This document shows, one piece after another, positions 3,058 to 42,392 of a stretch of DNA of 64,000 nt. The translations under genes were made by a program, and so were the position numbers. Within the stretch, counting starts at the first letter, position 1. The number at the start of each line of letters is the position of its first letter. The notes under the pieces were generated by a model. That model was given only the letters and a program-made list of their open reading frames with translations. It did not search any database and was not told where the DNA came from. Origin of the DNA: an uncultured delta proteobacterium (GTDB lineage: Bacteria; Desulfobacterota; Binatia; Binatales; Binataceae); assembly GCA_963761255.1 (NCBI GenBank), contig CAVXGH010000001.1, forward strand, positions 345,675-409,674, given 5' to 3'.

Positions 3058-4788
3058 ATGTCAGCCAAAGTGGTTGAACTTCACGAGAAAGCCCGCGTCG
3101 GCATCGTTCGCGGCGCCAACCTGGTCGCCAAAGCCGCGCAAGTCACCCTCGGCCCCAAAGGCCGCAATGTCCTGATCCAGCGCTCCTTTGGCGCACCGCT
3201 GGTGACCAAGGACGGCGTCACGGTAGTCAAGGAAATCGAGCTCGAAGACCGTTTCGAGAACATGGGCGCTATGATCATCCGCGAGGTCGCGCAGAAGACC
3301 GGCGATGTCGCCGGCGACGGCACCACCACCGCCACCGTCCTCGCGAAAGAAATGGTGACCGAGGGCATCAAGCTGTTGGCGGCGGGCCTCGCGCCGATGG
3401 AAATCAAGCGCGGAATGGACCTCGCACTGGCGGCGGCGCGCAACGCCATCAAGGAAATGTCCAAACCCATCAAGGATCGCGAACGGATGGAGCAAGTTGC
3501 GACCATCGCGGCCAATGGCGATTCCACCATCGGCAAGCTCATCGCCGATGCGATGCAGAAGGTTGGCAAGGAAGGCGTCATTACGGTGGAAGAAGGGCGC
3601 ACCCTCGAGACCACGCTCGATCTCGTTGAGGGGATGGTTTTCGATCGCGGCTATCTATCACCGTATTTTGTCACCAATCCGGATCGCCTCACCGTCGAGC
3701 TCGATGAGCCGGTGATCCTGCTGCACGAAAAGAAAATTTCCAACCTGCGCGACATGATTCCGTTGCTCGAACAAATCGTCCAGACCGGCCGTCAGTTGCT
3801 CATCATCGCGGAAGACGTCGATGGTGAGGCGCTCGCGGCATTGGTCGTCAATAAGCTGCGCGGCGCGCTCAAGGTTGCGGCAGTCAAAGCCCCGGGTTTC
3901 GGTGACCGTCGCAAAGAGATGCTCGAGGATCTCGCCATCCTCACCGGCGGTGAAGTTATCGCCGAGGAGTTGGGCCTCAAGCTGGAGAGCGTGAAGGTGA
4001 CCCAGCTCGGCAAGGCGCGCAAGGTGGTCATCGACAAGGACAACACCACCATCATCGGCGGCTCCGGCAAGAAGTCGGATATCAGTGGGCGCATCGAGCA
4101 GATTCGCCGTCAGATCGCGGACACCACCTCCGATTACGATAAGGAAAAACTTCAGGAGCGCCTCGCGAAGCTGACCGGCGGTGTTGCCGTCCTCAAGGTG
4201 GGCGCCGCAACCGAAGTTGAGATGAAAGAAAAGAAGGCGCGCGTTGACGATTCAGTTCATGCGTTGCGCGCCGCGGTGGAGGAGGGCGTGGTGCCCGGCG
4301 GCGGGGTCGCATTGGTTCGCGCGATGAAAGCCGTGCTCGAGTTGAAACTTCGCGACGAGCGCAAAGCCGGCGCGGAGATTGTCGCACGCGCGATGGGCGA
4401 GCCGCTGCGTCAGATTGCGAAAAACGCCGGCAGCGAACCCGAAGTCATTTTCAACGCGGTGCGCGAAGGGAAAGACGACTACGGTTTCAACGCCCGCACC
4501 GATACCTTCGAGAAGCTGAACGAGACTGGCGTCATCGATCCGGCCAAGGTGGTTCGCTCTGCGCTGGAAAACGCCGTCAGCGCGGCCTCGTTGCTGCTGA
4601 CGACCGAAGCCGCCATCGCCGAGAAGCCTCGCAAGGCTGCGCCGATGGGGATGCCTCCAGGAATGGGTGGAATGGGAGGCATGGGCGGTATGGGAGGCAT
4701 GGGTGGAATGGGCGGTATGGGTGGAATGGGAGGCATGGGAGGAATGGGCGGAATGGGCGGAATGGATGACATGGGTGGTGATTTCTAA
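3058..4788 (+). CDS. groL: Chaperonin GroEL (Cpn60) with an extended (GGM)13 C-terminal tail; no groES upstream
   Basis: Unmistakable GroEL sequence ([36 protein letters not shown]...; [11 protein letters not shown]); the C-terminus has 13 GGM repeats. Confidence 0.97.
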
Positions 4789-34800: not shown

Positions 34801-34826
34801 CCGCAGGCGCGATTTTCACATGCACC

Positions 34827-34861
34827 AGGCCGGCCCACTCTCGGGCCGGCCTTTTTTTGAT
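34827..34861 (+). terminator. Strong rho-independent terminator (GGCCGGCCC-actctc-GGGCCGGCC then TTTTTTT)
   Basis: 9-bp GC stem plus T7 tail after the LLM stop. Confidence 0.8.
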
Positions 34862-34878
34862 CTTTCGTTAAGCTCCAC

Positions 34879-34900
34879 ATCTGGAGTACTATCTCCAGAT
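34879..34900. promoter_or_regulatory. Perfect palindrome ATCTGGAG-tactat-CTCCAGAT 10 nt upstream of the antitoxin start; candidate autoregulatory TA operator
   Basis: 8-bp perfect inverted repeat with a 6-nt spacer in the TA promoter region. Confidence 0.5.
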
Positions 34901-34909
34901 AGAGATATC

Positions 34910-35341
34910 ATGCAGGCGCGCCACGCAACCGTACCCGTCAGTCAATTCGACCGGGGAGATCGCCAGGACCCTGACGCGCGCAAGAGGTTGTCCGGCCCCG
35001 CAATACGAGCGTTTTTCAACCTGGCCAGAAAATGGGAACTCAGCGTCGATCAGCAGCGCGGCCTGCTCGGATGGCCTGCTCCTTCGACCTATCACAAGTA
35101 CAAGGCGGGACGGATTGGAACCCTGTCTTTCGATGCACTTACGCGGGTTTCGCTGCTGCTCGGAATCTACAAGGCGCTCCACATTCTCTATCCGCAGGCC
35201 GAACTCGCCGATCAGTGGATCAAGCTGCGTAACACGAACTCAATTTTCGGGGGGAAATCGCCGCTCGCGCTGATGCTGGATGGCGGCATCGACGCGCTTT
35301 ACCAGGTGCGCCGCCTGCTCGATGCGCGCCGCGGCGGCTGA
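34910..35341 (+). CDS. DUF2384-domain antitoxin (Xre/MbcA/ParS family)
   Basis: C-terminal toxin-binding domain pattern (WLxxPNxxFGGKSPLxLM...G); genetic pairing with a downstream RES protein. Confidence 0.7.
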   Translation: MQARHATVPVSQFDRGDRQDPDARKRLSGPAIRAFFNLARKWELSVDQQRGLLGWPAPSTYHKYKAGRIGTLSFDALTRVSLLLGIYKALHILYPQAELADQWIKLRNTNSIFGGKSPLALMLDGGIDALYQVRRLLDARRGG

Positions 35342-35387
35342 TCTGCGTCCTCCGCTTCATCACATCAGGTGGCGCGGAACCCATCGC

Positions 35388-36011
35388 ATGATTCCGAGCC
35401 GCTATCCATCGGTCGGGATCCTCGATGAGATCGCCGCGCCGGAGGATCTCGACGCAATTTTCGAACTCGAAGGATGGACCAACGATCGCATCAGCAACGA
35501 ACTTGGCCTCCTGCATACGATTCCTAAAGAGGACTGGGTCACCGCCCAACCGATGGCGACCGTCATCATGGGCGCGTTTTGTCATCCGCGGCCTTCTGGC
35601 GGGCGCTTCAACGACGATCGGCGCGGCGCATGGTATTGCAGCCTCGCGATCAAGACCGCGCATGCCGAGGCCATTTTCCATCGCACCCGCGAGCTCGAAG
35701 AAATCGGCGGATGGTTCGACACCGCGGTGCAAATGGCTGACTATCGCGCCGATTTCAACGCCGATTTCCACGACCTTCGAGGGCGAGGTTTTTCCGCTTT
35801 CCTGAGGCCGGACGACTACCGCGCCTCGCAGAAAATTGCGCGCGCGCTTTTGGAAGATGGTTCCAACGGCATTGTCTATCCGAGCGTGCGCGATCGTGAT
35901 GGCCTATGCCTCGTATGCTTCAGGCCCCGGCCTGTTGCCAATGTGAAGCTCGCGGCGGTCTACGAATATCGGTGGTTGGGAACTCCGACGCCCTCCGTCC
36001 GAAAGTTGTGA
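35388..36011 (+). CDS. RES-domain toxin (MbcT/ParT-like NAD+-targeting family)
   Basis: R...E...S core: GGRFNDDRRGAWYCS..., ...AHAEAIFHR..., NGIVYPSVRDRDGLCLVCF; start MIPSRYPS after the antitoxin. Confidence 0.75.
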   Translation: MIPSRYPSVGILDEIAAPEDLDAIFELEGWTNDRISNELGLLHTIPKEDWVTAQPMATVIMGAFCHPRPSGGRFNDDRRGAWYCSLAIKTAHAEAIFHRTRELEEIGGWFDTAVQMADYRADFNADFHDLRGRGFSAFLRPDDYRASQKIARALLEDGSNGIVYPSVRDRDGLCLVCFRPRPVANVKLAAVYEYRWLGTPTPSVRKL

Positions 36012-36072
36012 CTAGGGCGTATCGTTTTTGCCTGACGACTGGATATCGCAAATCATCTATAATGCGGGGCCG

Positions 36073-36618
36073 ATGAAGATCAGCAAGCTGGTGATTTTGG
36101 GGATGGTCGCGCCCGCGTTTCTCGCGGCTGCAATCATCGCGCGCGCGGACAGCGTTACGGATAAACTCCTCGGGGTGCCGAGCGCCAAGGCGGCGACGGT
36201 GCGCGCCGGTGATGTCGAGGCGATCATCAAGCCGGCGGTCAGGCAGGCGGCGCCGGGCCAGGACATTCCGGTCAGCGCGGATTTCACCATCGGTTCGGGA
36301 TGGCACATTTACGGCAAGCCGATCTCGACCGATTACGTTGCGACGACCGTCACCTTCGACAACGGCCTGCTCGCGAAGCAATCGATGGACTTTCCGAAAC
36401 CCGAGATGGTCAAGTTCGAGGCGCTTGGGCAGACGCTGCCGGTTTACAAGGGCAGCATGCACGCCGGCGGCAACATCAAGCTGCGACCCGATCTGAAGCC
36501 GGGCGACTATCAGCTAGCGGGAAAGGTCGAGTTCCAGGAGTGCAGCGACAATATCTGCAAGATGCCGCAATCTTTGTCGTTCGAAATCCCGATCACCGTC
36601 GCATCCTCCGCACATTAA
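36073..36618 (+). CDS. Secreted protein with DsbD-N-terminal-like (thiol-disulfide interchange alpha-domain-like) fold
   Basis: Signal peptide MKISKLVILGMVAPAFLAAAIIARA; WHIYGKP...; C-terminal EFQECSDNICKMP resembles the DsbD alpha-domain Cys motif. Confidence 0.5.
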   Translation: MKISKLVILGMVAPAFLAAAIIARADSVTDKLLGVPSAKAATVRAGDVEAIIKPAVRQAAPGQDIPVSADFTIGSGWHIYGKPISTDYVATTVTFDNGLLAKQSMDFPKPEMVKFEALGQTLPVYKGSMHAGGNIKLRPDLKPGDYQLAGKVEFQECSDNICKMPQSLSFEIPITVASSAH

Positions 36619-36675: not shown

Positions 36676-37878
36676 TTATACGGGCAGTTTGTAGGCGTTG
36701 GCGACGTTCTCGCCGAGGATGGCGCGGCGCCCCGACTCCTTCATCGGCGCGATGAGGCCGCGCAACTCTTCCAGGTAGTTGCCCGGATGATCCGGATGCG
36801 GATAGTCACTCGCCCAGAAGAATTTATTTTCGCCAATTAGTTCCATCATGGCGGCGATGGTGCGCTCATCGGGATCGGCCGAGATGTAGCATCGATTTTT
36901 GAAGTAGTACGAAGGCTTCTCTGCCAGTCGCACAGTCGCCCCGAGCGGAGTGCCGGTGAAAATCGCGTCGGCGCGGTCGAGCCAGTAACCAATCCATCCG
37001 GCGCCGGCTTCGAGCACCACCAGCCGCATCTTCGGAAAGCGATCGAAGACGCCATACTGGAAGAAGGTCCCCAGCGCGTGCTGACAGCCCTGCGCCGCGA
37101 ACAGGTCGTTGTACCATGCGGCCCAGCCGAATTTGTCGAAGCGATGATGCACGCCGAACGCGATCGGCTCCAGGGTCGGATGAATCGCCAGCGGCACATC
37201 GAGATCCTGCGCGGCCGCAAACACCGCATCGTGATCGGGATGCCCATGCGGTTTGCGCGTGATGGTGAATGGCGCGACGAATGCGCCTTTGCATCCATCT
37301 TTCACAGCGCGCTCAAACTCCTTCGCGGCGGCCTCGGGATCGCCGAGCGACAGATGCGCGATCGGCACCAGGCGTCCGCCGGTGTCGCGACAGAAGTCCG
37401 CGATCCATCGATTGTAGGCGCTGCAGTAGGCCGCCGAGAGTTCGGGGTCGAAAAGTTCCGCCTCCCACAACAGTCCGATAGTCGGGTAGAGCAGCGCCTT
37501 GGCCATGCCCTCCTTGTCGATCAGCTCGATGCGCTCCTTCGCATCCATGGTGCCGAAGGCCGCGCCCTTCATGTAGGTCTGCTCCGGCGTGGGACGCATC
37601 GCGCGCGCGTCTTCGGGGCGGATTTTTCCGGTCATCATGGATTCGCGAAGTTGCTTCGCCTCGTTGACATTCTTTCCCATTCCGCCAAGAGAACCGAGGA
37701 CGCCGGGTTGGGTCAGGCGGGCGCGCTTCCCGTCGATTTCGAGAAATTCGTAGCCGTCCTCCGCGACGCGGATGCGCATCGCACGCGCGCGATACTTCGG
37801 ATCGAGGTATTTCTCCCACAAATCCGGCGGCTCGAGGATGTGCCCGTCGGCATCGATGACCAGCGCTTCAGCAGGCAT
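36676..37878 (-). CDS. Amidohydrolase-2 family protein (ACMSD-like metal-dependent hydrolase/decarboxylase)
   Basis: IDADGHILEPPDLWEKYL N-terminus and HPxxxD...YPHPDHPG patterns of Amidohydro_2. Confidence 0.7.
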   Translation of the reverse strand: MPAEALVIDADGHILEPPDLWEKYLDPKYRARAMRIRVAEDGYEFLEIDGKRARLTQPGVLGSLGGMGKNVNEAKQLRESMMTGKIRPEDARAMRPTPEQTYMKGAAFGTMDAKERIELIDKEGMAKALLYPTIGLLWEAELFDPELSAAYCSAYNRWIADFCRDTGGRLVPIAHLSLGDPEAAAKEFERAVKDGCKGAFVAPFTITRKPHGHPDHDAVFAAAQDLDVPLAIHPTLEPIAFGVHHRFDKFGWAAWYNDLFAAQGCQHALGTFFQYGVFDRFPKMRLVVLEAGAGWIGYWLDRADAIFTGTPLGATVRLAEKPSYYFKNRCYISADPDERTIAAMMELIGENKFFWASDYPHPDHPGNYLEELRGLIAPMKESGRRAILGENVANAYKLPV

Positions 37879-37893
37879 GGATGGTTTCCTCAG

Positions 37894-38817
37894 CTAGAAA
37901 ATCGCGATCGGATTGACCGGGGAGCCGGTTCCGCGTTCGAGGATGAGCGGCGCCATGGTGAACATGAACTCGTAGCGCGAATGCTTCTTCGCCTTCTCCG
38001 AGAGCGAATCGAAGTCGCCATTGTCGATAAGATGGATGCCCTGCATCACCAGCGTGCCGACGTGCACCGGCAGCATCAGGCCCTCGTAGCCGCTGGGCAT
38101 CACGTCACTCACCGCGTCGGAGCCGAGCACCGCGATTTTGCGCTCATGCAGCCACTTGAGGCAGCTCGCATCGAGGCCGGGCAGTCCCTCGGCCGGATCC
38201 CATCCGCCTTTGGCCTTGCGATTCGCGGCGCGACCGGTCCGCACCAGCAGCACGTCGCCCTCTTCGACGTGAACCTTGTGATCCTTTTCGGCAGCATCGA
38301 GGTCCTCGGGAAAAATCGCCACGCCTTTCTCAAGCCAATCAACTTTTTTAAGCTTGGGGATATCGAGCAGCACGCCGCGGCTGACGATGCCGGTGCGGGT
38401 GACATCGATCGGGCATTTACGCGCGCCATGGGAACCGACCTCGCTCGCATCGAAGCCGTTGTACATTTTCTTTTCCCAGAACACGTGGCAGAGCGCGTCG
38501 ATGTGAGTGGTCGCCATCCCATGAAACGAAATCGCGAAATAATCGCCCGAGTACGGCAGCGGCGTATGATGCGCGTCGTGCCCCGACTGCACCATCAGAT
38601 GGGTGACCGGAGTGGGATTGTCGGGCGCGGGGGTGACCGGGAGTGGCAGCGCGCATGATGCGGTCTCGCCGGTCTGCACCAGCTTGCTGGCGCGCGCGAC
38701 CTGCTTTTCGGTGATATAGTTCAGCGCTCCGCGCTGGTCGTCCTTACCCCATTTTCCCCAGTTGTTGCACTTTTCGAAGAGTCCTTTGATCTCGGCAGAC
38801 GTGAGCCGTTGCGCCAT
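37894..38817 (-). CDS. Cyclase-family protein (kynurenine formamidase-like)
   Basis: Cyclase fold motifs (HxGTHxDAxxH: HGMATTHIDALCHV; VLLDIP...DVLLVRTG). Confidence 0.7.
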   Translation of the reverse strand: MAQRLTSAEIKGLFEKCNNWGKWGKDDQRGALNYITEKQVARASKLVQTGETASCALPLPVTPAPDNPTPVTHLMVQSGHDAHHTPLPYSGDYFAISFHGMATTHIDALCHVFWEKKMYNGFDASEVGSHGARKCPIDVTRTGIVSRGVLLDIPKLKKVDWLEKGVAIFPEDLDAAEKDHKVHVEEGDVLLVRTGRAANRKAKGGWDPAEGLPGLDASCLKWLHERKIAVLGSDAVSDVMPSGYEGLMLPVHVGTLVMQGIHLIDNGDFDSLSEKAKKHSRYEFMFTMAPLILERGTGSPVNPIAIF

Positions 38818-38940
38818 GGTAGTGTCTCCTTGCAGAGTCGATTTTTCCGTATAGCACGAACTACGAGATGCGGAACAACTGAGAATTATTGAACGATTGG
38901 TATGCGCGCGGGCGGTATGCGAGCGGGATAGAATCAGTCA

Positions 38941-40470
38941 GTGGGCAATTTCGACATCGAGGCGGCGCGTACTTATCACGAGATCACCAAGCATTCGTAC
39001 ACCAGTGTGCGCGCCGGAGCCTATGCGCTCGATTGGGACAATCGCCCGGGGCCGTACAAGATTTACCCCGAGGCGGGCACCATGGCGCTGCCGCGCGATA
39101 TCGAGCTGCCCACGATGCCGGCGCTCGAGGCGATCGCATCGCCGGCCAATGGCTCCAATGCTCTCGACCTCGCGACGTTGACGCGCATCCTCTTCTGCGC
39201 CAACGGGTTGACGCGGCAACGCAAGGTCGGCGGCGAGGATTATCATTTCCGTGCGGCGGCCTCGGCGGGCGCGCTCTATCCGATCGAAACCTACATTGCG
39301 GCGGCGAATATCGACGGAATGGAGACCGGGCTCTATCACTTTTCGCCCGCCGATCTCAAAGTGCAGGGTCTGCGTCGAGGCGATTGGCGCGAGATCATCG
39401 CCAATGCGACCGCCAATGCGACCGCCAATGCGACCGCTAACCATCCTTCGATTGCGAATGCGCGCGCAATTCTCATCATGAGCGCGGTGTTCTGGCGGAG
39501 CGCCTGGAAGTATCACGCGCGCGCGTATCGCTATTGCTTTTGGGATGCGGGAACCATCCTCGCGAATCTGCTCGCGGCCGCGGCGGCGGAAGGCATCGGC
39601 GCCGAGGTCGTCACGGCCTTCGTCGATAAGGACCTCGAGACGTTGATTGGAATCGACGGCGAGAGCGAGGGCGTCATGTGTCTTGTCGCGCTCGGCTCGA
39701 ACGGCGAAGCGATGACGAAATCGCCGGAGCTGACGCCGCTGGGAATGGAATCGATCCAGCTATCGGAGGAGGTCGTTTACCAGCCGCTGGTCAAGATGCA
39801 TCGGGAATCGCGGCTCGCTTCTTTGCAGGAAGTTGCCAAGGTTTCGAACGCTAAGGTTGCGATGCCGTCTGCCACCAGCGGTGAGCAAGTCCACTTTGAG
39901 ACCATCGATCCCGCGGATGCGCGCGGTTTGGGCGACACCATCCTGCGGCGCGGATCGAGCCGTGCCTTCGCGCTCGAAGCGATCGGCTCCGATGACCTGG
40001 CGACGATTCTTTCGACCTCGAGTGGACATTATAACGTCGATTTTCCGCGCTTGACGGATACCTATCTCTTCGTGAACGCGGTGCATGACCTGGAGTGCGG
40101 CGCCTACTACTTCAACCGCGAGAACCAGGCCTTCGAGTTGCTCAAAGCAGGCGACTTCCGCGCCTCGGCGGGCTACCTATGCCTGGAGCAGCAGCTTGGG
40201 TACGAATGCTCGGCGCTGATTGTTTACATGGCCAACCTGGATAATGCGCTGGAGGTGCTGGGAAATCGCGGCTATCGCGATGCTCACCTCGAGGCTGGCA
40301 TGCTGGCGGGTCGCGCCTATCTCGCGAGCTATGCGCTGGATCGGGGCGCCACCGGGCTAACCTTCTACGATGACGACAGCACGAAGTTTTTCTCTCCGCA
40401 CGCTGCGGGAAAGAGCCCGCTCCTGATGGTAGCTATCGGGGTTCCGCGTTCCAGTTCGAAATCCGACTAG
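38941..40470 (+). CDS. Two-domain nitroreductase-fold protein, SagB/ThcOx-type dehydrogenase family
   Basis: N-terminal SagB-type domain (YHEITKHSY...PGPYKIYPEAG...RAAASAGALYPIETYI...YRYCFWDAGT); second nitroreductase-like domain at the C-terminus; internal (ANAT)x3.5 repeat. Confidence 0.65.
   Translation: MGNFDIEAARTYHEITKHSYTSVRAGAYALDWDNRPGPYKIYPEAGTMALPRDIELPTMPALEAIASPANGSNALDLATLTRILFCANGLTRQRKVGGEDYHFRAAASAGALYPIETYIAAANIDGMETGLYHFSPADLKVQGLRRGDWREIIANATANATANATANHPSIANARAILIMSAVFWRSAWKYHARAYRYCFWDAGTILANLLAAAAAEGIGAEVVTAFVDKDLETLIGIDGESEGVMCLVALGSNGEAMTKSPELTPLGMESIQLSEEVVYQPLVKMHRESRLASLQEVAKVSNAKVAMPSATSGEQVHFETIDPADARGLGDTILRRGSSRAFALEAIGSDDLATILSTSSGHYNVDFPRLTDTYLFVNAVHDLECGAYYFNRENQAFELLKAGDFRASAGYLCLEQQLGYECSALIVYMANLDNALEVLGNRGYRDAHLEAGMLAGRAYLASYALDRGATGLTFYDDDSTKFFSPHAAGKSPLLMVAIGVPRSSSKSD
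39400..39441 (+). repeat. 12-nt in-frame tandem repeat (gccaatgcgacc x3.5) inside the SagB-like gene, encoding ANATANATANATAN
   Basis: Direct read of the sequence. Confidence 0.9.
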
Positions 40471-40631
40471 AGCCATGCTGATTATCTAATCAGCCTCTCC
40501 ACCTTTCTTCCGAACTGGATATCGTCCGGTCGGCCTAGACTTGATGCTCGACAAATGGGCGGGTGCTCAGGCGTTGCGCATTGCATAATGTTTCATTCAT
40601 TCAAAACGCAACGCAATTTGTTGCATTTTGG

Positions 40632-40647
40632 TGGCATTCTTCTTGCG
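40632..40647 (+). promoter_or_regulatory. Sigma-54 (RpoN) -24/-12 promoter TGGCAT-N5-TTGCG about 75 nt upstream of the APC permease
   Basis: The GG-N10-GC spacing and flanks match TGGCAC-N5-TTGCW; an upstream inverted repeat GCGTTGCG-N29-CGCAACGC (40570-40614) is a possible enhancer site. Confidence 0.6.
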
Positions 40648-40721
40648 CTAAGGCTCTCGACCAAGCTGTCCCCGGGTGGGAAGTTCTCGTCCCGAAAAAA
40701 ACTGACGGCTAAGGAGGAGAG

Positions 40722-42392
40722 ATGGCTGAGCAAGAAGCGCCAAAGATGAAAGCGACGCTCGGGCTCACGGGAGTGACCGTGAACGCGATGGCGTTGATCG
40801 CGCCAGGAGCCTTTCTTTGGATCACGTTCTTCACACAGGCGAACCAGGCGTATCCATCCGCCATTGCGATGTGGGCGGGCATTTTCCTCGCCTTGTGCCT
40901 CGCATACGCGACCGCGATTTCGTATTCGGAACTCGCGAAACTGTATCCCGGCGCGGGGAGCTCGTATTTGTTCGCCGAGCAGGCATTCCTGAACACGACG
41001 ACCGCGTACAGGTTTGCGCGTATCGCCAAGTTTGTAATCGGATGGTCGTCGCATCTTTATTACTGGGTCTATCCCGGAGTCATGGTCGCCACCATGGGCG
41101 TCATGATCGGGTATATCGTCGGAACCCTGGCGCCGGGCGTGATGAACGCAGGGGTGCCGGGCCCGGTCTTCATGGCATTGATCGCGATCATCTTCTCATA
41201 CGTGGTTGCCTACATTGCCTTCCGCGGAGTGAACGGCTCGACCGGAGTCAACGTCGCGATCAACGGCATCCAGATCGTCGCGCTGCTGTTCTTCTCGGCG
41301 CTGGCGATCGCTTATCGTATTTCGCATCCTGAGGGTTCGGCCGGTCTCGCACTCGACCCCAATGGCAACACGATTCCTGCGACCATCCACTATGCCTTGA
41401 CGGGAGATCATCCTGCCCATGCCAGCGCGCTCTCGGTCATCCTGCCGCACGGCTTGAGCAACACCATCATGCAGGCGACGGTCGCAATCCTGCTGCTGGT
41501 CGGATTCGAGTCCGTCACCGCGATGGGTGAGGAAGCGATCAACCCCAAGAAGGACATTCCTCGCGGCGTCCTGCTGTCGCTCACCATCCAGGGATTGTTC
41601 TGCTACCTGATCGAATACTTCGCGGCGAACTACTTCCTGAGCAGTGCGTACAGCCTTGCGGAAGCGAAGGGCTCGGCGGCGCCAATCGGCGACATGATGG
41701 TCATCCTTGGCAATGCGCTGCTGGGTGGGCATGGCCAGGCCTTCATGTTGTTGGAAGCGTTCACGGTGTTCCTCGCTCTCATCGGAACCACTCTGAGTTG
41801 CATCAACACCGGCGCCCGCGTGACCTACGCGATGGGCCGTGACGAGGAAGTGCCGGAGCATTTCGGCATGCTGCACGGCGACAACCTGACGCCGCATCGC
41901 GCAATCTGGGTGTTGGCGACGATCTCCGCGCTGATCGGCGCATACGGTGCGCTGTACTACTTCGGTGGCGGCTCGGCGCCCGATGACAAGACCATTGCGA
42001 CCTTGCCGCACAGCATCTGGTATAGCGTCGGTATCGGCAGCAATGCTTACCTCGCGTCGCTACCCAATGGACTATTGCTGGTGACGTTGCTCTCGAACTT
42101 CGGCACCTTCCTGCTCTATGGGCTCACCAACATCGTCTGCATCATCGCGTTCAAGGAGCACCACGACTTTTCTGGCTTCAAACATATGATCGTGCCAGTG
42201 TTTGGGGCGCTCGCGAACTTCGCCTGCCTCGCCTTCTACATCATCGGACCACTGGAGGGGATCGGCAGCCCGAAAGAGCCGCTGATCGCAGTCGGATTGT
42301 CGATAATCTTCGGTGCGTACGGAGCGTTCTACTTCGTGCGGAACTCGAAGAAGAAAGGCAAGAGCACGCTGATGGTCGCGAAGCCTGCGTAA
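40722..42392 (+). CDS. APC-superfamily amino acid permease
   Basis: 12-14 TM permease with APC family motifs; RBS aaggaggag. Confidence 0.8.
   Translation: MAEQEAPKMKATLGLTGVTVNAMALIAPGAFLWITFFTQANQAYPSAIAMWAGIFLALCLAYATAISYSELAKLYPGAGSSYLFAEQAFLNTTTAYRFARIAKFVIGWSSHLYYWVYPGVMVATMGVMIGYIVGTLAPGVMNAGVPGPVFMALIAIIFSYVVAYIAFRGVNGSTGVNVAINGIQIVALLFFSALAIAYRISHPEGSAGLALDPNGNTIPATIHYALTGDHPAHASALSVILPHGLSNTIMQATVAILLLVGFESVTAMGEEAINPKKDIPRGVLLSLTIQGLFCYLIEYFAANYFLSSAYSLAEAKGSAAPIGDMMVILGNALLGGHGQAFMLLEAFTVFLALIGTTLSCINTGARVTYAMGRDEEVPEHFGMLHGDNLTPHRAIWVLATISALIGAYGALYYFGGGSAPDDKTIATLPHSIWYSVGIGSNAYLASLPNGLLLVTLLSNFGTFLLYGLTNIVCIIAFKEHHDFSGFKHMIVPVFGALANFACLAFYIIGPLEGIGSPKEPLIAVGLSIIFGAYGAFYFVRNSKKKGKSTLMVAKPA

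Follow-up and report, generated by a model that had tools for sequence, protein, structure and literature searches.

A 64,000-nucleotide stretch of DNA from an uncultured delta proteobacterium of the Binataceae (contig CAVXGH010000001.1; hereafter the window, whose numbering is used throughout) carries a gene for a 509-aa two-domain flavoprotein of the SagB/ThcOx family (38941-40470, + strand, GTG start). We consider it likely that this protein is a stand-alone dehydrogenase or oxidoreductase dependent on flavin mononucleotide (FMN) and that, within the nitroreductase superfamily, it falls in the branch of the SagB/ThcOx family typified by 3EO7 and At1g02020. There is nothing exceptional about the gene, which represents a known two-domain kind whose function is uncharacterised. 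Its start codon is supported by alignment, since more than 20 homologues open with MGNFDIEAAR.

The assignment to the SagB/ThcOx family was clear. The flavoprotein matched the SagB model TIGR03605 over two stretches with 151.7 bits (cut-off 78.4) and the Pfam Nitroreductase model PF00881 with 73.6 bits. An earlier note on this DNA had proposed a SagB/ThcOx-like enzyme, and the signature was indeed present, including the Lys-Tyr dyad described below; the ground on which the note would have given up this assignment, lack of a SagB signature, thus does not apply. The best match in the PDB was 3EO7 (Ava_2154 of Anabaena variabilis, 511 aa, labelled a "putative nitroreductase"), which was colinear over residues 8-481 (phmmer E 1.9e-44). 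A structural model was then available from AlphaFold 2 (AF2), built on a 48-sequence alignment spanning Binataceae, Nostocales and haloarchaea; its predicted local distance difference test (pLDDT) score was 89.9 and its predicted template-modelling score (pTM) 0.92. An earlier AlphaFold run on a shallow 22-sequence alignment was unusable (pLDDT 38.8). Foldseek superposed the AF2 model on 3EO7 with E 1.8e-38 and template-modelling (TM) scores of 0.75/0.79, and it covered only one domain, at TM ~0.3, with ThcOx, BmdC, McbC and ordinary nitroreductases. Membership of TIGR04511, a SagB-related model named "putative peptide maturation dehydrogenase", was also tried and did not hold, at 111 bits against a cut-off of 240.

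The presence of two nitroreductase-like domains, as the note had described, was borne out by the nitroreductase and TIGR03605 hidden Markov models, by the AF2 model and by homology between the two halves of the protein (BLASTP E 5e-4). All parts of the gene lie on the + strand. An N-terminal extension of ~71 residues (38941-39153) contains helices at 7-16 and 20-25 in the AF2 model, and its motif A9..H13..T16 (YHExTKHS), P36 and Y42 are invariant across three clades; no RiPP recognition element (RRE; RiPP, ribosomally synthesized and post-translationally modified peptide) was found in this extension. Domain 1 (~residues 72-262, 39154-39726) has the SagB-type nitroreductase fold, carries R104, S108, K190-Y191 and D202, and alone reached 112.4 bits on TIGR03605. 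It is followed by an interdomain linker (~residues 263-325, 39727-39915), variable in length and sequence in the alignments, with modelled helices at 281-290 and 295-302. Domain 2 (~residues 326-509, 39916-40470) has a nitroreductase fold with an R337-x-S339-x-R341 motif and no Lys-Tyr dyad. Alone it scored 42.9 bits on TIGR03605 (E 3.6e-11), under the cut-off, and is therefore a diverged copy. Two fused, diverged nitroreductase-type domains in one polypeptide replace the usual homodimer, forming an intramolecular pseudo-dimer.

The residues that contact the flavin were examined next to those of the solved structure. 3EO7 binds FMN through R98, P101, S102, D188, H191 and R334, drawn from both domains (PMC7538488), and these contacts map to R104, A107, S108, D202, T205 and R337 of the window protein. 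R104, D202, R337, S339, R341 and Y191 were invariant in 48/48 sequences from three clades. The Lys-Tyr dyad K190-Y191 (codons at 39508-39513, + strand) was identified by alignment to ThcOx and BmdC, in which the window's AWKYHARAY aligns with FWKYHDIAY of ThcOx and MPKYGAAGY of BmdC. In these 48 sequences the Binataceae and haloarchaeal members have K at position 190, and the cyanobacterial ones have R. The equivalent of the BmdC K-Y in domain 2 is V-L, and the dyad is thus confined to domain 1. Because the contacts come from both domains, the R-x-S-x-R motif is found only in domain 2 and the dyad only in domain 1, each chain probably has a single composite FMN site, located between the domains with K190-Y191 beside the flavin. 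Since domain 2 lacks the dyad, the ancestral dimer's other site has probably become inactive and degenerate.

The Lys-Tyr dyad is catalytically important in BcerB and McbC, and by analogy with such azoline oxidases a reaction scheme can be proposed for the window protein. R104, S108, D202 and T205 of domain 1, together with R337 and with S339 and R341 of domain 2, would hold one FMN at the domain interface. The K190-Y191 dyad would aid proton removal while a hydride is passed to flavin N5, and the outcome would be a two-electron desaturation of a substrate, or the reverse reduction. The flavin could then be re-oxidised by O2 or by another acceptor.

Alternatively, the window protein could reduce nitro compounds, quinones or flavins as a general NAD(P)H-dependent enzyme of detoxification or of the defence against redox stress, its SagB-like features reflecting ancestry only. 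A 187-aa SagB-subgroup enzyme from soil DNA, SagB1, reduced metronidazole (PMC10055417), and a role in oxidative stress has been proposed, as speculation, for the plant orthologue (PMC7538488). Furthermore, several copies in haloarchaea have genes for universal stress proteins nearby, and the gene stands alone in varied neighbourhoods, as housekeeping-type genes do. However, the Tyr of the dyad is invariant, and the dyad belongs to the dehydrogenating azoline oxidases. To our knowledge it is not a feature of NfsA/NfsB-type reductases. Membership of this classical NfsA/NfsB nitroreductase class was considered and rejected, in that no NCBIfam or PDB sequence match to NfsA or NfsB was obtained and classical nitroreductases matched at the level of the fold only (Foldseek E ~1e-4, TM ~0.24). 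Moreover, SagB1 has a single domain, and its activity as a nitroreductase may be promiscuous. On balance we regard a general reductase as rather unlikely.

We asked how the stand-alone dehydrogenase relates to RiPP pathways, in which SagB proteins are encoded with YcaO. Neither Pfam scans of all major open reading frames (ORFs) nor phmmer probes revealed a YcaO gene in the 64-kb window, in agreement with the note. The probes comprised two real YcaO proteins and leader-binding proteins of thiazole/oxazole-modified microcin (TOMM) systems. They were compared with all stop-to-stop ORFs of 60 aa or more, both in the window and in 92 loci with a 3EO7-like gene, of which 84 came from Binataceae, 4 from haloarchaea and 4 from cyanobacteria. 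None of the 92 loci yielded a YcaO or TOMM partner, and two further loci were likewise negative. Three loci served as controls. In the first, on a plasmid of B. thuringiensis, the gene for a canonical SagB of 263 aa directly adjoins those for a YcaO and a TOMM leader-binding protein; the second is a Streptomyces SagB inside a thiopeptide cluster, and the third a Brevibacillus match with an adjoining YcaO. The YcaO and leader-binding control probes detected each other across phyla, and for leader-peptide-binding proteins (E1-like, Ocin-ThiF or RRE) the TOMM probes matched the control loci only. SagB probes matched all sources, with a clean separation between family members (146-318 bits) and canonical SagBs (70-115 bits). 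Since ThcOx aligned only over its flavin domain in Foldseek, the window protein has no RRE domains. The small ORFs of the flanking spacers showed no frame-specific conservation of the kind that would mark a precursor-peptide gene.

These results show that the lack of YcaO is the rule for the 3EO7-like two-domain subfamily and that the window gene is normal in this respect. The note had implied that a SagB-type enzyme standing alone is unusual; this does not apply here, because none of the 92 3EO7-like loci has a YcaO while the canonical SagB controls adjoin one. The flavoprotein is not part of a RiPP cluster. Standard annotation would name the gene "SagB/ThcOx family dehydrogenase", and where a protein of ~500 aa matches 3EO7 along its entire length, its SagB domain is not to be read as the sign of an azole-peptide cluster.

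The protein might nevertheless act in trans, as an orphan azoline oxidase of a thiazoline/oxazoline peptide or a nonribosomal peptide synthetase (NRPS) product encoded elsewhere in the genome. SagB-like dehydrogenases that are not clustered with a cyclodehydratase have been discussed in the TOMM literature, and both the SagB signature and the Lys-Tyr dyad are present. Several observations make this very improbable. No YcaO, leader-binding protein or conserved small ORF was found near the gene in the window and the 92 loci, although the controls were detected, and the alignment with ThcOx is restricted to the flavin domain, without an RRE. In addition, a conserved, single-copy-like gene kept in Nostocales, including a symbiont with a reduced genome, and represented in plant organelles is a misfit for natural-product tailoring.

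The distribution of the family is broad. Homologue searches, each with 8000 scored candidates, gave 5492 full-length relatives at E <=1e-5 when the query was the window protein, 2643 when it was 3EO7 and 7830 when it was a member from haloarchaea. The family occurs in Binataceae, Nostocales and haloarchaea, and plants have an organelle-targeted orthologue of 3EO7, At1g02020 (PMC7538488). Within the cyanobacterial clade, identity across Nostocales is 78-99%, and the symbiont Richelia has retained the gene. The subfamily, for which a structure has been solved, is thus conserved and widespread, with members in plants, cyanobacteria, haloarchaea and Binatia. The genes around it differ from one genome to another in five haloarchaeal and four distinct cyanobacterial genomes. 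In the Binataceae, purifying selection acts on the flavoprotein gene, whose dN/dS is 0.10-0.15; the neighbouring cyclase gene described below has 0.015-0.07. It diverges several times faster than its neighbours when compared with loci L001, L002, L005 and L007: the protein of L001 is ~89-90% identical to that of the window, versus 98-99% for the cyclase and the permease.

To the left of the flavoprotein gene, and divergent from it, lie two hydrolase genes. The first is a cyclase-family gene (37894-38817, - strand; PF04199, E 3e-20) and the second, on the same strand and 15 bp downstream, an Amidohydro_2 gene of the ACMSD/PtmU3-like type (36676-37878, - strand; PF04909, E 9e-25), which is probably co-transcribed with the cyclase across the 15-bp gap. 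A gene for a DsbD_N-domain protein with a hydrophobic, signal-like N-terminus follows (36028-36618, + strand; E 2e-10). This layout, the divergent pair with a DsbD_N gene nearby, is as the note had described it. The DsbD_N gene is convergent with the amidohydrolase gene and poorly conserved, and is therefore merely a neighbour. The best PDB match of the cyclase was 5IBZ, an uncharacterised protein (E 8e-42), and nothing specific was obtained otherwise. The PDB relatives of the Amidohydro_2 protein were PtmU3 and ACMSD-type non-oxidative decarboxylases, a broad group.

We counted these neighbours in the 62 Binataceae loci with sufficient upstream sequence. The divergent cyclase gene adjoined the flavoprotein gene in 48/62, making it the most persistent neighbour within Binataceae; both hydrolases were present in 43/62, the cyclase alone in 5/62 and neither in 14/62. 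Outside the Binataceae, the cyclase, Amidohydro_2, DsbD_N and permease genes were found in none of 10 loci (five from haloarchaea and five from cyanobacteria, with one cyanobacterial region represented twice). The pair is a frequent but dispensable, Binataceae-specific neighbour and is not general to the flavoprotein family. In seven loci (L034, L037, L044, L050, L058, L068 and L080) the cyclase was still adjacent and the downstream block was wholly different. We considered these alternative contexts as independent support for a link to the cyclase and rejected them as such, since the loci have a common downstream block, which indicates a single rearrangement.

Several further arrangements were seen around the hydrolase genes. 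Two tandem cyclase paralogues lie between the Amidohydro_2 and flavoprotein genes in L042, L048, L069, L076 and L084. In L001 (7735-8938) the Amidohydro_2 gene was called as two pieces of 173 and 214 aa, and a single-stretch alignment covered residues 145-400 only; this is a frameshift, reflecting either a pseudogene or an assembly error. In Binatus loci such as L028-L030 and L040, genes for a TetR regulator and a luciferase-like monooxygenase directly abut the flavoprotein gene.

The neighbourhood could reflect a Binataceae three-gene catabolic module, consisting of the flavoprotein, the divergent cyclase hydrolase and the Amidohydro_2 protein, with expression coordinated by the shared intergenic region. 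In such a module the flavoprotein would desaturate, aromatise or reduce an N-heterocyclic or aryl-amide compound, and the metal hydrolases would open the ring, decarboxylate or hydrate. Consistent with this, the cyclase is adjacent and divergent in 48 of the 62 loci and both genes accompany the flavoprotein in 43, the adjacency is kept in the clade with a different downstream block and in the loci with duplicated cyclases, the cyclase-proximal part of the intergenic region is conserved, and relatives of the Amidohydro_2 protein act on aromatic acids and ACMSD-type substrates. However, the flavoprotein occurs with neither hydrolase in 14/62 Binataceae loci, and 0/10 cyanobacterial or haloarchaeal loci have either one. 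All supporting loci come from one bacterial family, such that inherited synteny explains much of the pattern, and the rearranged group counts as a single event. The flavoprotein also evolves several times faster than the cyclase, and neither hydrolase has a characterised close relative. We therefore view a dedicated module as distinctly unlikely, although functional or regulatory coupling to the hydrolases in Binataceae is possible. Accordingly, of the note's suggestion that the enzyme acts on a product of the neighbouring hydrolases, the association itself stood for the cyclase in 48/62 Binataceae loci, and the generality did not, as it was absent from 14/62 of these and from 10/10 loci of other phyla; the suggestion is weak and lineage-restricted.

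The neighbourhood is also a weak lead to the substrate. It is doubtful that the pairing with the cyclase, usually joined by Amidohydro_2, gives a first hint, from genomic context, of what the entire 3EO7/At1g02020 family acts on. If it did, the reaction of the family would be the desaturation or reduction of a small N-heterocyclic or aryl-amide metabolite, with no YcaO involved.

On the right, the flavoprotein gene is followed by an amino-acid permease gene (40722-42392). The 251-bp spacer between the two is conserved as strongly as coding DNA (79-96%). All six frames match equally, and the conserved spacer is therefore not a small ORF. A riboswitch or leader was considered and rejected, as no Rfam match was obtained at E <=1 and the conserved core is a sigma-54 promoter. 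This -24/-12 promoter (TGGCATTCTTCTTGC, 40632-40646, + strand) was the sole strict match in the 64 kb, against 0.28 expected, and it precedes the permease orthologue in 49/51 loci. The spacer conservation that could have suggested a small ORF is explained by this promoter. An invariant inverted repeat (GCAACGCAATTTGTTGC, 40608-40624) lies just upstream of it, with more conserved blocks within 40530-40721. The conserved blocks upstream of the promoter may bind an activator, and the presence of amt, gltBD and an AsnC regulator nearby suggests that expression is nitrogen-regulated.

Because the permease has its own promoter and the left neighbour is divergent, the flavoprotein gene is probably monocistronic and, judged from the sequence, probably transcribed on its own. 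The divergent intergenic region between the cyclase and the flavoprotein gene (38818-38940) has two parts. Over the cyclase-proximal ~90 nt, conservation among close relatives is 80-96%. Just before the GTG start lies a 15-nt direct repeat (GGTATGCGCGCGGGC GGTATGCGAGCGGGA, 38899-38927), in a part that is conserved with L001 only.

Some of these data weigh against a stand-alone FMN-dependent dehydrogenase. The count of one FMN per chain is drawn from residue mapping and from a description of 3EO7 in the secondary literature. The chemistry is proposed by analogy, and we found no functional study of any member, including Ava_2154 and At1g02020, in the literature. The cyclase is adjacent in 77% of the Binataceae loci, including the clade with the rearranged downstream block, and the promoter scan revealed no sigma-70-like site upstream of the flavoprotein gene. 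Set beside these points are the conserved residues, the absence of YcaO and the varied neighbourhoods described above, and we continue to favour an enzyme that would function independently of its neighbours.

The flavoprotein gene contains an in-frame tandem repeat in domain 1, consisting of GCCAATGCGACC x3 (39400-39435) and a diverged GCTAAC (39400-39441 in all, + strand), which encodes A154-N167 (ANATANATANATAN). Tandem Repeats Finder reported a period of 12 and 3.2 copies with a 100% match at 39399-39437. The 64 kb contain just two other tandem arrays, and this ANAT repeat can therefore not be put down to chance. The A-[H/R]-A-T-A-N unit occurs once in most relatives, L001 as the nearest of them (~89-90% identity) has one extra unit that has already diverged, and the window has two extra ANAT units that are identical at the DNA level. 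These differences between the relatives, L001 and the window indicate that slippage was stepwise and recent; they also bear out the note's statement that the repeat preserves the frame and varies in copy number. The insertion falls in the sole segment of the AF2 model with pLDDT <50 (residues 160-166), where 3EO7 is shorter. Taken together, the ANAT repeat is a recent, lineage-specific expansion by replication slippage in a disordered surface loop, tolerated and neutral-looking, and nothing observed suggested a function for it.

Two of the three tandem arrays of the window are no more than 550 bp apart, both at the 5' end of the flavoprotein gene. A 9/18-nt array (GGAATGGGT, ~13 copies, 4659-4778) is found at the 3' end of groEL (3058-4788), where it corresponds to the usual Gly-Gly-Met C-terminal tail.

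The window as a whole has a G+C content of ~60%, and its closest relatives are all metagenome-assembled genomes of Candidatus Binataceae/Binatus. It is an ordinary core region of a Binatia chromosome that includes rpsB-tsf-pyrH-frr-uppS-cdsA-rseP, ilvNC, groEL, rho, amt and gltBD, and genes for a PP2C phosphatase and a Ser/Thr kinase. Between a luciferase-like monooxygenase gene and the DsbD_N gene lie an Xre-type antitoxin gene (34820-35341) and a RES-domain toxin gene (35280-36011). The pair was found in L005 and was missing in L007 and L010, whose flanking genes are contiguous, and it looks like a mobile toxin-antitoxin insertion. In one Binatus clade (L018, L019, L023, L025, L027, L032, L035 and L051), extra genes lie between the flavoprotein and permease genes, 2-4 kb downstream of the former, and among them is a second ammonium-transporter paralogue, ~40% identical to the Amt of the window.

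Among known systems, 3EO7 is the closest counterpart. It resembles the window protein in its length of ~510 aa, its two-domain pseudo-dimer, the invariant Tyr of the dyad and a gene without a partner, and its FMN contacts R98, D188 and R334 are kept as R104, D202 and R337. The two nevertheless share only ~27-30% identity. Position 190 is Lys in the window protein and Arg in the cyanobacterial members, T205 replaces H191 of 3EO7, and the window protein has an 8-residue ANAT expansion in a loop that is shorter in 3EO7. Furthermore, the Binataceae genes usually adjoin the cyclase/Amidohydro_2 pair, whereas the cyanobacterial 3EO7-like genes examined never do.

The azoline oxidases of RiPP and NRPS pathways, namely SagB, BcerB, McbC (6GOS), ThcOx (5LQ4/8PZ5) and BmdC (7LY4), have the nitroreductase FMN fold and the Lys-Tyr dyad in common with domain 1 of the window protein. 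The azoline oxidases are homodimers or members of complexes, are encoded beside a YcaO cyclodehydratase or an NRPS and often have RRE domains. The window protein, in contrast, has a fused, degenerate second nitroreductase domain and no RRE, YcaO or precursor, and the similarity extends over one domain only (E 1e-6 to 1e-4, Foldseek TM ~0.3-0.4). The mycobacterial Acg family (e.g. PDB 2YMV) likewise mimics a dimer with two nitroreductase-type domains in a single chain (Foldseek E 1.8e-4). However, its identity to the window protein is 11% at a TM score of 0.30, and Acg proteins, without the SagB signature or the Lys-Tyr dyad, form a different subgroup. The resemblance to Acg is an analogy of architecture and not a sign of membership.

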